Shown here piece after piece: positions 6,580 through 11,171 of a DNA stretch of 64,000 nt (positions are counted from its first letter, which is position 1; each line of letters opens with the position of its first letter). A program made the position numbers and the translations under genes. The notes beneath the pieces were generated by a model. It did not search any database, was not told the origin of the DNA, and saw only the letters and a program-made list of their open reading frames with translations. Origin of the DNA: Solirubrobacterales bacterium (GTDB lineage Bacteria; Actinomycetota; Thermoleophilia; Solirubrobacterales; Solirubrobacteraceae); contig JBBSMC010000005.1 in the NCBI GenBank assembly GCA_038233375.1, forward strand, positions 2,296 to 66,295, in the 5' to 3' direction.

Positions 6580-7908
6580 ATGACCCGTGCCGGCCTCGAC
6601 GCCGGCGCCGCCCGGACTCATGGCGCGGAGGACGCCGAGCGCTGGCTGCTGTCGCTCGAGCTGTTCGGGATGCGCTTCGGCCTGGACCGCATGCGGCGGC
6701 TGATGACCGCGCTCGACGCCCCGCACGCGCGCTTCTCGGCGATCCACGTCGTCGGCACCAACGGCAAGTCCTCGACCGTGCGGATGATCGCGGCGCTGCT
6801 GCACCATCACGGCATCCGTGCCGGCGCGTACCTCTCGCCACACCTCGTCTCCTTCGCCGAGCGCATCCGTGTCGACGGCGCGGACGTCTCGCCGCAGCAG
6901 TTCGCCGAGGCGGTCGGCCGCGCGCGTCGCGCCACGCAGCTCGTCGACCGCACGCTGGACGCCGACGACCGCGTCACGCAGTTCGAGGCGCTGACGGCCG
7001 CGGCCTACGCCCAGCTGGCCGAGGCCGGCGTCGAGGTCGCGGTCGTCGAGGCCGGCCTGGGCGGGCGCTGGGATGCGACGAACGTCATCGACGCCCGCGT
7101 CGCCGTGCTGACGAACGTCGGGCTCGAGCACACGCGCTGGCTCGGGCCGACCGTCGCGGACATCGCCCGCGAGAAGCTCGCGGTCGTCAAACGGTCTGAC
7201 CCACCCACCACGCTCGTGCTGGGCGGCGACCTGCACCCCGAGGCCGAGGCCGAGGCGCTGATCGTGGCCGAACGCCAGGAGGCGACGATCGTACGCGCGC
7301 CCGCCGCGCCGCCCGCGGGGACCGAGCTCGTGGCGCGAGGCGCGTTTCAGCGGCGCAACTTCGCCGTCGCGTGCGCCGCCGCCGAGGCGTGGCTGGGGCG
7401 TCTGGAAGACGACGCGGTCCGCGCGGCCGCGGCGTCCACCGTCGTACCCGGGCGCTTCGAGGTGCTGGCGGCCGATGGCGCGATCGAGGTCGTCCTCGAC
7501 GGCGCGCACAACGCGGGCGGGATCGCGGCGCTCACCGGATCGCTGCCGGACTTCGTGGCGGGGCGCCCGCTCGTGGCCGTCCTGTCGGTGCTCGACGACA
7601 AGGACGCCGCCACGATGCTCGAGACGCTCCTGCCGCTCTGCGCCGGCGTCGTGTTCACCGCCAACGTCAACCCGCGAGCCCTCTCGCCGGCGACGCTCGC
7701 CTCACTGGCCGGCCAGATCGGCACGCCGGCGGTCACCCGCGTCGAGGCTGACCCGCATCGCGCCGTCGCGCTCGCCCGCGGCCTCGCCCGCGGCCTCGCC
7801 CGCGAGCTCGACGCGGGCGGCGGAGGGGTCGTCCTCGCCACCGGCTCGATCTACCTCGTCGCCGACCTCGTACGGCCGGCCGGCGCGGGCCGGGGGTCGA
7901 CGCTGTGA
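6580..7908 (+). CDS. folC: Folylpolyglutamate synthase / dihydrofolate synthase
   Basis: Mur-ligase P-loop VVGTNGKSST. The valS-folC-ndk synteny supports the call. Confidence 0.85.
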   Translation: MTRAGLDAGAARTHGAEDAERWLLSLELFGMRFGLDRMRRLMTALDAPHARFSAIHVVGTNGKSSTVRMIAALLHHHGIRAGAYLSPHLVSFAERIRVDGADVSPQQFAEAVGRARRATQLVDRTLDADDRVTQFEALTAAAYAQLAEAGVEVAVVEAGLGGRWDATNVIDARVAVLTNVGLEHTRWLGPTVADIAREKLAVVKRSDPPTTLVLGGDLHPEAEAEALIVAERQEATIVRAPAAPPAGTELVARGAFQRRNFAVACAAAEAWLGRLEDDAVRAAAASTVVPGRFEVLAADGAIEVVLDGAHNAGGIAALTGSLPDFVAGRPLVAVLSVLDDKDAATMLETLLPLCAGVVFTANVNPRALSPATLASLAGQIGTPAVTRVEADPHRAVALARGLARGLARELDAGGGGVVLATGSIYLVADLVRPAGAGRGSTL

Positions 7909-8021
7909 ACCACGAGGGCCCGTCGGCGCTGAAGCTCATCGCCGCCGTCGCGCTGCTCGTGGCGGTCACGATCCTGTTCTGGTTCGGCGTCGGCTACGGC
8001 CTCGGCCGCCTCTTCCTCTGA
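7905..8021 (+). CDS. Possible small membrane protein (38 aa)
   Basis: The GTG start overlaps the folC stop (GTGA). It encodes one hydrophobic helix (LKLIAAVALLVAVTILFWFGVGYGL). From memory, many actinobacteria carry a small membrane protein between folC and ndk. Confidence 0.3.
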   Translation: MNHEGPSALKLIAAVALLVAVTILFWFGVGYGLGRLFL

Positions 8022-8068: not shown

Positions 8069-8545
8069 GTGCTTGCCGTCTTTGGCATCAACAGCGATGG
8101 GCTGAACCTTGCGGTCAACATGCTCATCCTGTTTCTCGTCGTCATCTACCTGGCGCTCGTGTACTGGACGTACATGGACGCGATCAGGCGGATCGAGGAC
8201 CCGATGCTCGTGATCTGCGCCACGGTCGCATCGCTGTTTCCGTTCGTCGGGACGATCCTCTACGTGATCGTCCGTCCTCCGGAGTACCTCGAGGACATCC
8301 AAGAGCGCGAGCTGGAGATGCAGGCCGCCGAGGCGCGATTGCACGAGGCGAACTACATGCTCTGCCCGCATTGCGACTACGAGGTCAAGGAAGACTTCCT
8401 ACGCTGTCCCAACTGCGTGCGCAAGCTGCGCGACCCGTGCCGCAACTGCGGCCGGCCGCTGGACCCGACCTGGAAGCTCTGCCCGTATTGCGAGGCAGAG
8501 CCGGGCGACGTCGGACGACAGCCGCGGCTGCGCTCCGAAGCCTGA
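8069..8545 (+). CDS. Membrane protein with a PLD-N-like two-helix anchor and a double zinc ribbon
   Basis: Two N-terminal TM helices followed by CPHC...CPNC...CRNC...CPYC (four CxxC pairs). Confidence 0.6.
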   Translation: MLAVFGINSDGLNLAVNMLILFLVVIYLALVYWTYMDAIRRIEDPMLVICATVASLFPFVGTILYVIVRPPEYLEDIQERELEMQAAEARLHEANYMLCPHCDYEVKEDFLRCPNCVRKLRDPCRNCGRPLDPTWKLCPYCEAEPGDVGRQPRLRSEA

Positions 8546-8984: not shown

Positions 8985-9141
8985 CGGTGGGGCCGGATGA
9001 GTCCAGGACGCGCGGTCCCCGAGGCGACATCGGACCCGCTGCAATCGGAGCGAATCGCATCGGATGTGTCTTGGTGGCGGAGGCGTTCGAGGGTCTGACA
9101 ACGACGGGTGGCCCCGGCACAATCGGGTTGCAAAAGACAGC

Positions 9142-9158
9142 TAAGTATCAGATACTTA
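9142..9158. promoter_or_regulatory. Perfect 8-1-8 palindrome TAAGTATC-A-GATACTTA, a candidate operator or promoter element
   Basis: Read directly from the sequence. It is AT-rich in a GC-rich genome and ends 7 nt before the ATG of the first ATPase gene. Confidence 0.4.
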
Positions 9159-9165
9159 TTTGTGA

Positions 9166-10122
9166 ATGCGCTTTCGAGATCGTCCACTCCTCCTCGACGG
9201 CATCGATGCCGCCTTGTACCTTGATCGGCCCGAGCTGGAGTCCAAACTCGTCGAGACGCTGTGGTCGGAGCGCAATGTTCTCCTGCTCGGTGAGCCCGGA
9301 TCGGGCAAGAGCACGCTGCTGCGCAAGGCGGCGAGCTTGCTCGAGAGTCGCGGACGTGCCGCTGTCCTGGTCAACGGGGCATTGGCCCAAGAAGCGACGG
9401 GCCTGCTCGAGCTCGTCGATGACGCTTTGCCCCCGAGCGAAGCCCGTGGTGCACCGCAACGAGCTGCGAGTTCCGGGCTACTGAACGCAGCGCGTCGGCT
9501 GCGGCGCGCGTCGCCGGTGGCGATACTGCTCGACAATCTGGTTGATGGTGAGATCGGCTACGACGTGTTCGGGCGGTTGCGCGACGAACTGTGGGAGCTC
9601 CGGCACCCGTGGGCGGTGGCAGTGCGCCCGCGCGACTCGGGTGCCCTGCGGACCCCGCCGGCAAATGCGTTCTGGTCCAGTGTCGTCGAGATCCCTCCCC
9701 TGGGTTACGACCAGATCGAGCGCCTATTGGCGCTCGGCCTGAACGATGCGGAGTACGAGACCGTTCACCGTGACTGCGTCATCAGTGGCGCGCATCCTCG
9801 GCAGATCATCCGCGCCGCTCAGCAAGCCGTCGCGCAGGGGAGCACCGTTTCATTGGCTCCGGGCCAGGAACTCATCGATCGCGCGACCGAGCTCGGCCGC
9901 AGCGAGGCGATGGCGATGGCGGAGCTGCAGGCGCTTGGGCGACCGGTGAGCGCGCACGATCCTGAGTTGCTCGCACGGCTCGGCTGGTCTCGATCGTACG
10001 CACAGCGCATCCTCGCGCATCTGGAGGCCAACAAGCTGCTGCGGACGATGCCCGAACGTGGCGACCGAGTCGGGCGCCCGCGAAAGCTTTACGAACCCCA
10101 GCCCAGCACGGAGCGCATGTGA
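9166..10122 (+). CDS. Orc1/Cdc6-like AAA+ ATPase with a C-terminal winged-helix-like domain
   Basis: Walker A GEPGSGKST, Walker B-like AILLDN, lid-like IPPLGYDQIERLL, and a C-terminal RILAHLEANKLLRTMPERGDRVGRPRKLYEP. GC is lower than in the flanks. Confidence 0.7.
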   Translation: MRFRDRPLLLDGIDAALYLDRPELESKLVETLWSERNVLLLGEPGSGKSTLLRKAASLLESRGRAAVLVNGALAQEATGLLELVDDALPPSEARGAPQRAASSGLLNAARRLRRASPVAILLDNLVDGEIGYDVFGRLRDELWELRHPWAVAVRPRDSGALRTPPANAFWSSVVEIPPLGYDQIERLLALGLNDAEYETVHRDCVISGAHPRQIIRAAQQAVAQGSTVSLAPGQELIDRATELGRSEAMAMAELQALGRPVSAHDPELLARLGWSRSYAQRILAHLEANKLLRTMPERGDRVGRPRKLYEPQPSTERM

Positions 10123-11171
10123 GCCTGCAGCGCATCCACGAGCGCGGCGTCTTCGATGACGCGACGACGGACGAGCGCCGTACCCGCGTCTACGTTCGCT
10201 CGGGTGAGCTCGGTCTCGTCAGCCGTGCTGACCTCGAGCTGATGGATGCGCTCACGACGCGACCGCTACCGCAACGCCTACACATCGTCGGTCCCAGCGG
10301 GGCGGGGAAGACCAGTCTCATACTGCGTGTCGCCGCAGATCTCATGCGGCTCGAGCTCGGCAGAAGGCACGAGATCCTGATCCTCCGGGTGGGAGATCGT
10401 CCGGAGCGGCTGGCCAGCCCCGAGGAAGTGATGAAGATGGTGCTCGAGGCGATCGCGGTCGAAGGTCATCGCTTCTCCAACATCAGCCCAGACGTCCTGC
10501 GCGCGGCTGCTGCCGATGAACGCACACATACGCCGAAGCAGGTCGAGCACCGCGGGGGATTGCGCGCTCCAGTTGTCAGCTATTCGGCCAACCTGAAGCA
10601 GGCATACGACACGATCGCGTTCGGTCAGAACGCCGCGAGGGTGCGGCACGACCTCGAAGATGTTCTCGCTCAGGTCGATCGGGCTGGGTACAGGCCCGTT
10701 CTCGTTCTGGACGACACCGAGAAGTTCGTCAGCCCGGGGGCTGACGGAAAGCTCGATGAGAGCTCGGTCGAGAACCTCTACCACCACGGCGTGCGCATTC
10801 TCGGTGAGCTTCCCGTCGACCTCGTCGTGGCCATGCACCCGCGTTTCGAGGCCGTGGATCGAGTCCGCGACGTGATCGAGCGCCTCGGCATGCCGCGTAT
10901 CGACGTGCCCGAGTTGCCCGCGGACAGCGATGAACCGGCGCTGGCGGCGATCTTTGAGCGCCGCATACAGCGCGATGATGTCGAGGTGGCGCTTGAGACG
11001 GTGATCGAGCGAGCCGCTATCGAAGAGCTACAAGTCCTGTACCACGATCGCGACAGCGACCTGCGGTCGGTGCTACGAGTTGCACACACTGCTGCGGGAC
11101 ACGCGCTGGATCGAGGCGCCGGCAGGATTCAGCCCCGCGATATCCGTGCAGTTGTCGCGACCGCGACCTGA
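10119..11171 (+). CDS. P-loop AAA+-type ATPase, partner of the upstream gene
   Basis: Its ATG overlaps the upstream stop (ATGA). Walker A is GPSGAGKTS and Walker B is VLVLDDTE. A long insert separates the two motifs. Confidence 0.7.
   Translation: MSLQRIHERGVFDDATTDERRTRVYVRSGELGLVSRADLELMDALTTRPLPQRLHIVGPSGAGKTSLILRVAADLMRLELGRRHEILILRVGDRPERLASPEEVMKMVLEAIAVEGHRFSNISPDVLRAAAADERTHTPKQVEHRGGLRAPVVSYSANLKQAYDTIAFGQNAARVRHDLEDVLAQVDRAGYRPVLVLDDTEKFVSPGADGKLDESSVENLYHHGVRILGELPVDLVVAMHPRFEAVDRVRDVIERLGMPRIDVPELPADSDEPALAAIFERRIQRDDVEVALETVIERAAIEELQVLYHDRDSDLRSVLRVAHTAAGHALDRGAGRIQPRDIRAVVATAT

Follow-up and report, generated by a model that had tools for sequence, protein, structure and literature searches.

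The question raised by this locus is what two ATPases that resemble replication initiators are doing between the housekeeping genes ndk and maf of a bacterium. The locus lies in a 64,000-nucleotide (nt) stretch of a Solirubrobacterales bacterium (NCBI GenBank assembly GCA_038233375.1, contig JBBSMC010000005.1, positions 2,296 to 66,295 of the forward strand), the whole of which is referred to below as the window, and it consists of two open reading frames (ORFs), A and B, that form a cassette of ~2.2 kb. Upstream of the cassette are valS, folC, a gene for a Zn-ribbon membrane protein and ndk, and downstream are maf, mreB, mreC, mreD and the PBP2 gene. As a preliminary description of this DNA had noted, these are core genes in conserved order, in relatives as well as in the window, and no effector gene stands beside the pair in the window. 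Judging from their modelled structures, the products are AAA+ proteins that both belong to the ORC/Cdc6-STAND assemblage and are deeply diverged, and sequence comparison of loci indicates that the pair is an accessory and mobile two-gene unit. The best explanation that we can offer, to which we give an even chance of being correct, is that A and B constitute a DNA-binding module, heteromeric and switched by ATP, that regulates its own expression and acts in genetic conflict.

The two genes are closely tied to one another. They encode proteins of 318 and 350 residues and overlap by 4 nt, as originally described, but the overlap is not ATGA: the junction runs ...CGC ATG TGA GCC, with the GTG start of B at 10119 and the TGA stop of A at 10120-10122, and the shared letters are GTGA. 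This overlap suggests coupled translation of A and B. Both ORFs are real genes and not chance reading frames, since each has clusters of homologues and a confident AlphaFold model. The homologues (192 clusters for A, 97 for B) come from Solirubrobacterales-type metagenome-assembled genomes and from soil metagenomes, and an exhaustive profile search with B recovered 374 representative clusters at E<=1e-10, nearly all of them stand-alone proteins of 340-360 residues. The family amounts to several hundred clusters at 50% identity, with members uniformly 315-360 residues long. In more than 80 fetched loci (designated L001 and so on), a B homologue directly follows A wherever the contig continues, except where B has decayed or is undetectable, and the start of B usually overlaps or abuts the stop of A. 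The adjacency is kept in a distant clade, in which identity is 32-39% for A and 26-30% for B, and in a Candidatus Dormibacteraeota genome (L092), which belongs to another phylum; moreover, the neighbour-joining trees of A and B contain the same clades and are congruent. The co-occurrence of A and B outside this genome, which the preliminary description had required of its interpretation, is therefore strict. All-against-all clustering of neighbouring ORFs revealed no third conserved gene beside the pair, only lineage synteny. Genes of ~500 residues that flank the pair in L001, L046 and L075 were considered as partners and proved unrelated to one another, and a coiled-coil/NlpC-P60-like gene in L003 and L017 was set aside as local synteny. 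The gene caller used, which relies on G+C content at third codon positions (GC3), missed A in many loci, so that the lists of neighbours are approximate and their GC3 is biased upward. Loci with a decayed or undetectable B are given in Table 1.

Within the ndk-maf interval, the pair is not universal. The order ndk-A-B-maf is shared by the window's species (L010-15, L028) with the relatives L019-21, L023 and L024, whereas in three lineages (L088/89, L090 and L091) ndk is followed directly by maf, 28-107 nt away, without the pair. By core genes these empty-site lineages are equally close to the window, with ValS identity of 82-90% compared with 82% for the pair-carrying L019. Elsewhere, the pair is found between genes for a glyoxalase and a GMC oxidoreductase (L016), or between the coiled-coil/NlpC-P60-like gene and SHOCT/SpoU (L003, L017, L041, L043), and in further loci of other clades the contexts are unrelated to one another. 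By a rough estimate, the pair is present in a minority of relatives, there being more than 120 Maf clusters at 75% identity or above and ~14 A clusters at 69% or above (192 in all). A and B of the window are 73% and 79% identical to those of L019; the corresponding values are 82-86% for valS, folC, ndk and mreC, 98-99.7% for the Zn-ribbon protein and MreB, and 81%, close to that of B, for Maf. The visibly lower GC content reported for the pair is confirmed by both measures of composition, the total GC of A and B being 0.65-0.67 against 0.716 for the window and their GC3 being 0.762 and 0.755, respectively, against a mean of 0.916 (standard deviation 0.050) for 43 window genes, which makes them the lowest in the window, 3 standard deviations below the mean. 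Neither bounding direct or inverted repeats nor a target-site duplication, att repeat, tRNA or integrase was found at the cassette borders in the window.

AlphaFold2 models, built on alignments of 76 sequences for A and 79 for B, place both proteins near the initiators. The model of A has a predicted local distance difference test (pLDDT) score of 92.1 and shows the three domains of Orc1/Cdc6, namely the AAA+ base, the lid and a C-terminal winged helix. Its best Foldseek matches in the PDB are archaeal Cdc6/Orc1 proteins (1fnn, 2v1u, 2qby; E 2e-9 to 1e-8), followed by eukaryotic ORC/Cdc6 subunits, RuvB and the NLR/STAND proteins Sr35, NLRC4, CED-4 and Apaf-1. The winged helix-turn-helix (HTH), previously recognized as a winged-helix-like segment, comprises helices 266-272 and 276-288 and strands 292-296 and 307-311 in the model; G303, R304, P305 and Y309 of the wing are invariant, GRPRKLYEP as a whole is nearly so, and weak matches to the Pfam families MarR_2 and IclR cover the same C-terminus. 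Arg212 lies in an HPR motif, an assignment made by motif and model. Both nucleotide-binding motifs of A read as had been reported. The residue after the Walker B Asp is Asn in the window, Gly in most Solirubrobacterales relatives and Asp in the distant homologue L092, and no Solirubrobacterales member has an acidic residue there. The weak hydrolysis that had been read into the Asp-Asn motif may thus apply to A at the level of this lineage.

B is predicted to have an AAA+ base and lid; the model (pLDDT 87.7) ends with the lid and, in line with the earlier claim that the C-terminus has no DNA-binding domain, contains no winged helix. Its top Foldseek matches in the PDB are ORC1/Cdc6 and archaeal ORC2 (7jgr_A, 2qby_A, 1w5t) together with RuvBL1/2, at E ~1e-6, and against viral structures it gave generic clamp-loader and AAA matches only. 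The Walker A and B motifs of B are those given in the preliminary description, and the long spacer between them measures 134 residues from the Walker A Lys to the Walker B Asp. Most of this spacer is a helical insertion, modelled as helices 95-98, 101-114, 124-136, 150-165 and 172-188 with low confidence at residues 135-148, which is conserved in the family and deleted in the variant L025. ATPases of the initiator clade carry a DNA-contacting insert at the position of the initiator-specific motif, and the order of secondary structures suggests that the insertion of B occupies the corresponding position of the ORC/DnaA clade. Arg316, in the lid, is a candidate sensor-2 arginine by its resemblance to the 'GDxRxAxxLL' sequence of Cdc6. 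Alignment of A and B by hhalign detected similarity over only 66 columns around Walker A, so the two are not recent paralogues.

The label Orc1/Cdc6-type under which the pair was first described therefore applies to the fold of both proteins and not to their sequences, neither of which falls in the initiator family. The best fold matches include the S. solfataricus Orc1-1/Orc1-3 heterodimer on origin DNA (2qby), P. aerophilum Cdc6 (1fnn) and A. pernix ORC1/ORC2 (2v1u, 1w5s), and the likeness extends to the encoding of two different paralogues together and to the specific inverted repeat next to the gene. In contrast, sequence identity to these proteins is 13-18%, B lacks the winged helix, and its insertion, at ~100 residues, is no short helix-extension-helix. 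In this lineage, the Walker B motif of A is without the acidic pair; B has DD-TE and the candidate sensor-2 residue Arg316. Bacteria normally start replication with DnaA, and the present pair is a dispensable, patchy one in bacteria. On the NCBIfam model for Orc1/Cdc6, TIGR02928, B scores 12.1 bits against a cut-off of 181.3 and A has no match; the ORC-CDC6-like family PF24389 gave only weak matches, in relatives.

No other family could be assigned. Scans of A and B against Pfam, NCBIfam, PADLOC and PHROG returned no family above its threshold; the sub-threshold matches (AAA_16, AAA_22 and nSTAND types) centre on the P-loop. TniB reached 11.9 bits against a cut-off of 22.4, and among STAND models A scored 21.5 with NACHT (cut-off 26.7), 20.5 with nSTAND5 (34) and 20.4 with nSTAND3 (27.2), and B scored 20.2 with nSTAND1 (27.1). 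The best matches to antiphage models in PADLOC v2.0 and NCBIfam, mad8 (7e-5) and EruA (2.6e-5), cover only 40-50 residues around the P-loop and come without partner genes, and profile searches against PDB sequences gave P-loop matches only (RecA, midasin, ABC). The pair thus fits no characterized system, be it a transposition helper or a named defence system, as had been surmised. The scan of contigs with the B profile was dominated by a P-loop pattern, and L009, which it recovered, proved to be an ABC transporter and a false positive. An apparent A-B fusion of 687 residues (P0463) seems to have arisen by reading through from A into B across a frameshift. In a protein of 585 residues (P0388), a B-family ATPase domain at 260-577 follows a region with a serine-protease signature of trypsin-like type (GSSGSPVF), which may reflect either a genuine fusion to an effector or a gene call that ran on.

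A conserved region with a predicted promoter and operator travels with the pair, which, as a result of sequence comparison, is a new observation. The perfect palindrome AAGTATCaGATACTT ends 8 nt before the ATG of A with no Shine-Dalgarno sequence between, and the A-B mRNA is for this reason probably leaderless or nearly so. A -10-like GATACT (9151-9156) lies within the right arm of the palindrome, 9 nt from the ATG, and in most clade-1 loci TTGCAA or TTGACA stands 17 nt before GATACT, regardless of the flanking genes. In a scan for the promoter consensus the window scores 8/12, below the scan threshold, and loci with TTGACA score 10/12. AAGTATCaGATACTT occurs once in the 64-kb window, even when 3 mismatches are allowed, and no fetched locus has a second copy of the operator. 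In 11 of the fetched loci, the exact sequence precedes A at this same position; among the distinct upstream sequences compared, the palindrome pairs at 7/7 positions in 20 and at 6/7 in 6 more, with unrelated sequence further upstream, and longer forms of ~29 bp (CGCAGnTAAGTATCnGATACTTAnCTGCG) are common. In other clades, other inverted repeats take this place, always ending within ~10 nt of the start codon, and the recognition helix of A co-varies with the class of repeat, being WSRxYAQR in clade 1, WTRPHAAR in the L001 clade and VSGQRARK in the distant clade. With a single base at its centre, the palindrome leaves no room for the loop of an RNA hairpin, for which reason we prefer a DNA operator for a dimeric winged-helix protein, and no Rfam match was found in the region. 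A may therefore bind the palindrome as a dimer and repress the operon, as the sequences suggest.

Table 1. Positions of the features discussed. Unless another locus is named, positions are those of the window, counted from its first nucleotide.
Feature	Locus	Positions	Strand	Description
ORF-A	window	9166-10122	+	318 residues, ATG start; N-terminal MRFRDRPLL motif, AAA+ core, lid, helical linker, C-terminal winged helix
A Walker A	window	9289..9315	+	GEPGSGKST, residues 42-50; G42, G45, G47, K48 invariant in both clades
A Walker B strand	window	9520..9537	+	AILLDN, residues 119-124; Asp123 conserved
A winged HTH	window	9937..10098	+	residues ~258-311; recognition helix WSRSYAQRIL, wing GRPRKLYEP
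ORF-B	window	10119-11171	+	350 residues, GTG start; AAA+ core, large helical insertion, lid
B Walker A	window	10290..10316	+	GPSGAGKTS, residues 58-66; G58, G61, G63, K64 invariant
B helical insertion	window	10389..10688	+	residues ~91-190, ~100 residues, between strand beta-2 and Walker B strand
B Walker B	window	10698..10721	+	VLVLDDTE, residues 194-201; D198 invariant in Solirubrobacterales-type members; D199, T200 at least 90% conserved
B Arg316	window	11064..11066	+	in D-L-R-S-V-L; candidate sensor-2 arginine in lid; invariant in A4, at least 90% across clades
-35-like hexamer	window	9128..9133	+	TTGCAA, 17 nt upstream of GATACT; putative promoter element
Palindrome	window	9143..9157	.	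AAGTATCaGATACTT, perfect 7-1-7; predicted operator for A winged helix
Inverted repeat before A	L055			ATGTATCTGATACAT; other clade, same place
Inverted repeat before A	L001/L046/L049/L052			GCACTAA-N13-TTAGTGC
Inverted repeat before A	distant clade			TTGCGAAA-N11-TTTCGCAA, around TATAGT
Inverted repeat before A	L069			AACGAATCTTAC-T-GTAAGATTCGTT, perfect 12-1-12 palindrome
B decay variant	L025	1332-2015		in-frame loss of residues ~81-200; insertion and Walker B gone
B decay variant	L030, L031, L051	2448-3508 (L030)		common C-terminal frameshift
A without detectable B	L060/L061	8972-9578		A intact, B undetectable
Pair at ndk-maf site	L019	3952-5954
Defence neighbourhood	L092 (Dormibacteraeota), JALYEO010001464.1	3292-8017		directly downstream of A-B: Hypoth_Ymh, HEPN_AbiV, HNH, Abi_C, N6/N4 DNA methyltransferase; scpB upstream
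Integrase and cyclase	L069	6708-11306		phage-type integrase divergently upstream, SMODS (CBASS-type) cyclase convergently downstream of distant A-B
Three-gene block	L049	7616-12458		directly downstream; middle gene matches PD-Lambda-2_B, E 1e-34
DUF4365-TPR	L022			neighbour
MazE-PIN	L002			in region differing from near-identical sister L001
Insertion sequence (IS) transposases	L004			neighbours
AbiEii match				among neighbours, locus not assigned
504- and 191-residue genes	L001, L002	4459-5973, 8074-8649		bracket the pair; same coordinates in both loci
ORF of 38-39 residues	window	~7905-8021	+	overlaps folC stop by 4 nt, precedes Zn-ribbon gene
ORF of 38-39 residues	L010	783-899
ORF of 38-39 residues	L019	2775-2891
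ORF of 38-39 residues	L088	3816-3932
Zn-ribbon/DZR membrane protein	window	8069-8545

A palindromic operator over the -10 element, a first gene encoding an HTH protein and a second gene overlapping it by 4 nt together form the classical layout of a type II toxin-antitoxin locus. In this reading the antitoxin would be A, which would bind DNA and repress its own operon, and B would be a toxic ATPase that A neutralizes; the pair would persist because its loss is costly, with or without abortive infection. The cassette is small, autonomous, patchy and mobile, MazE-PIN lies beside it in L002, and the loci that keep A without detectable B are what would be expected if toxins decay first. However, B resembles no known toxin fold and matches no toxin family, and A and B, two large AAA+ ATPases from a single clade whose nucleotide-binding motifs are conserved in both, look more like parts of a joint machine than like a toxin and its inhibitor; we consider an addiction module of this kind distinctly unlikely.

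The inverted repeat also bears on the origin of the cassette. Archaeal orc1/cdc6 genes lie beside origins with origin recognition box (ORB) repeats, and the pair could be the relic, or the minimal form, of a replication-maintenance module of an integrated element, with ORC/Cdc6-like initiators next to an origin-like inverted repeat. Among known structures, the best matches are indeed Orc1/Cdc6 proteins that bind origins, among them the heterodimer of 2qby with its origin DNA. Directly upstream of A there is an inverted repeat specific to the clade, together with a stretch richer in AT, and L069 has an adjacent integrase. Yet there is a single palindrome, coinciding with promoter elements, in place of repeated ORB boxes or an extended unwinding element, and the window and most loci contain no integrase, relaxase, partition gene, att repeat, target-site duplication or tRNA. 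Absence from viral contigs and the intactness of the genes over deep divergence in chromosomal contexts likewise speak against a relic, and we regard this origin as very improbable.

In the module acting in genetic conflict that we propose, A would dimerize through or alongside its winged helix and bind the palindrome over the -10 element, so that the leaderless A-B transcript is repressed and both proteins are scarce. A, with its intact Walker A and, in this lineage, no acidic residue after the Walker B Asp, would be the ATP-binding switch and the DNA-recognition subunit, and B, with complete Walker A and B motifs, the candidate sensor-2 Arg and the ~100-residue insertion at the presumed position where initiators contact DNA, would be the hydrolysing partner. 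Assembly of the two on DNA would depend on ATP and proceed through their AAA+ interfaces, as it does in archaeal Orc1 heterodimers or in ORC-Cdc6. The role of the assembly would be defence against invading DNA, or addiction. A nuclease or protease acting as a separate effector would not be needed, since the output would consist in the DNA-bound complex of the ATPases, which might occlude or capture DNA or be toxic on derepression, a step that is speculative.

The company kept by some of the loci is in line with a function in conflict. In the Dormibacteraeota locus, the pair is directly followed by abortive-infection, HNH and DNA methyltransferase genes, and other loci have an integrase and a CBASS-type cyclase, a PD-Lambda-2_B match or transposases beside it (Table 1). 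The two genes of ~620 residues that flank the PD-Lambda-2_B gene in L049 have no PADLOC match. Matches to the PADLOC models DpdF and PsyrT and to Cas3-like models near the pair were discarded, all of them being one RecQ-like helicase in L006 that may be housekeeping. In L001 and L002 the pair is bracketed by the same genes of 504 and 191 residues and the outer flanks differ, those of L002 containing MazE-PIN and five extra genes; the two loci may represent a four-gene island in a variable region. The 191-residue protein has a faint GIY-YIG match, and the 504-residue product in L001 was considered as a tyrosine recombinase on motifs found by eye only, an assignment that neither Pfam nor PDB searches support.

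Several observations weigh against the proposal of an ATP-switched module in conflict. About two thirds of the non-redundant loci, and the window likewise, have ordinary metabolic or housekeeping neighbours, and the possible enrichment of the pair near defence genes is suggestive, being a raw minority count without a matched control. No effector domain is recognizable, which is what makes the output step speculative, and the DD of L092 contradicts a family-wide degeneracy of the Walker B motif of A. Positions are stable within clades (the ndk-maf clade and the ACS/SHOCT/SpoU clade), a pattern that resembles vertical inheritance more than island turnover. A direct link to phages is missing too, in that the A profile found no relatives on viral contigs, from which the 18-nt operator is also absent. 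Finally, in L019 the pair occupies the same ndk-maf site with native GC3, 0.92 as opposed to 0.76 in the window. Low GC3 is thus not a general property of the pair, and in the window it may stem from replacement of the allele by one from a donor of lower GC, or from a relaxation of codon selection. The description of the pair as a compact acquired module that cannot be assigned to a known system is supported in its other parts, and the word 'acquired' is complicated by the native codon composition in L019.

The same stability of position and the mostly housekeeping neighbours would suit a lineage-specific regulator of transcription or chromatin, in which A is a minimal ATP-switched protein of STAND/LAL type and B a co-ATPase. 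A metabolic or stress signal would prompt such a regulator to act on genes of the cell located elsewhere, and the palindrome would serve ordinary autoregulation. The weak AAA_16, NACHT, nSTAND5 and MarR-like matches of A and its structural matches to NLR/STAND proteins agree with this, and JGI names some members 'predicted transcriptional regulator'. A regulator of cellular genes is nevertheless hard to reconcile with the lack of a second operator copy in the 64-kb window or any fetched locus and with the lack of a sensor domain (TPR, WD40 or ligand-binding). Close relatives differ in the presence of the pair at the same site, its distribution is patchy compared with that of Maf and includes decayed variants of B, some loci reside in Abi, CBASS or integrase islands, and the pair spans phyla. 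On balance we find a regulator of this type rather unlikely.

A more elaborate possibility, which we judge unlikely, is that the A-B hetero-oligomer is an effector-free, ORC-like immunity or exclusion machine, that is, a domesticated initiator-type complex that interferes with replication. Invader DNA would be recognized through the fast co-evolving winged helix and the insertion of B, ATP-dependent loading would block replication or partition, and the machine would be restrained by tight autorepression from its own operator.

Among described systems, the nearest arrangement is that of operons in mobile counter-invader neighbourhoods, described by comparative genomics, in which a KAP P-loop NTPase accompanies two Orc/CDC6 genes, one of them having an intact Walker A and a disrupted Walker B (PMC10853773). 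Fusions to STAND, pentapeptide or TIR domains are frequent in the active Orc/CDC6 copy of these operons (PMC10853773). The present pair likewise has two Orc/CDC6-clade genes in one operon, one of which (A) has an intact Walker A and a partly disrupted Walker B, and it is likewise mobile, accessory and sometimes located beside immunity genes. In contrast to those operons, it has no conserved third gene, KAP, TIR and pentapeptide families are not among its top neighbour families, and a self-operator is added. A also shares with STAND proteins (NACHT, NB-ARC and nSTAND; Avs/NLR-like; MalT/LAL) the core of nucleotide-binding domain, helical domain and winged helix and the logic of an ATP switch, together with the weak nSTAND5, NACHT and AAA_16 matches. 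STAND proteins differ in possessing C-terminal sensor repeats or an N-terminal effector domain, whereas A ends at the winged helix (residue 318) and B at the lid, two separate AAA+ proteins divide the function between them, and the Pfam scores are below gathering thresholds.

Bacterial ATPases of the ORC/Cdc6 clade serve as scaffolds in the modification-based defence systems BREX (BrxC/BrxD) and Ssp (PMC12839542). BrxC, which has a winged HTH, BrxD, which stands alone, and SspC, all of them acting on DNA in defence, resemble the pair as bacterial ATPases of this clade (PMC12839542). Unlike in these systems, PglZ, the PglX methyltransferase/BrxX, BrxA/B and Ssp partners are absent nearby, and no Brx gene is present in the window or recurrent in 138 neighbours; A and B match none of the PADLOC Brx models and are much smaller than BrxC. 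The transposition ATPases IstB, TniB and TnsC are AAA+ proteins of the same broad assemblage, to which the weak AAA_22-type matches point, but neither the window nor more than 20 other contexts have a transposase next to the pair, transposases do not recur among the neighbours, and there are no terminal repeats.

Two features of the genes upstream of the cassette deserve mention in their own right. An ORF of 38-39 residues, called between folC and the Zn-ribbon gene in every relative examined, has no Pfam match and may encode a conserved micro-protein of the valS-folC-ndk cluster. The Zn-ribbon/DZR membrane protein is 98-99% identical across relatives in which Ndk, Maf and FolC are only 76-86% identical; its only Pfam matches are DZR/zinc-ribbon families, and the constraint is unusually strong for a small, poorly characterized protein.

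To the preliminary description, our comparisons add the strict pairing and co-evolution of A and B, the empty-site relatives, the co-varying predicted operator and occasional residence in defence islands, including one in another phylum. In prokaryotic conflict systems, ATPases of the ORC/Cdc6 clade and of the STAND class are found repeatedly as switch or scaffold, nearly always with a recognizable effector or modification partner. The present family consists only of two ATPases and a self-operator, and if its role in protection or addiction is true, the ATPase-DNA complex itself must be the effector, which would represent a new mode of action for initiator-type AAA+ proteins in bacteria. A 2.2-kb cassette with its own promoter and with a predicted operator that co-varies with the recognition helix makes the proposal easily testable, specificity swaps being ready-made. 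Should the pair prove to be only a regulator, it would still define an uncurated protein-family pair for soil Actinomycetota and Dormibacterota.

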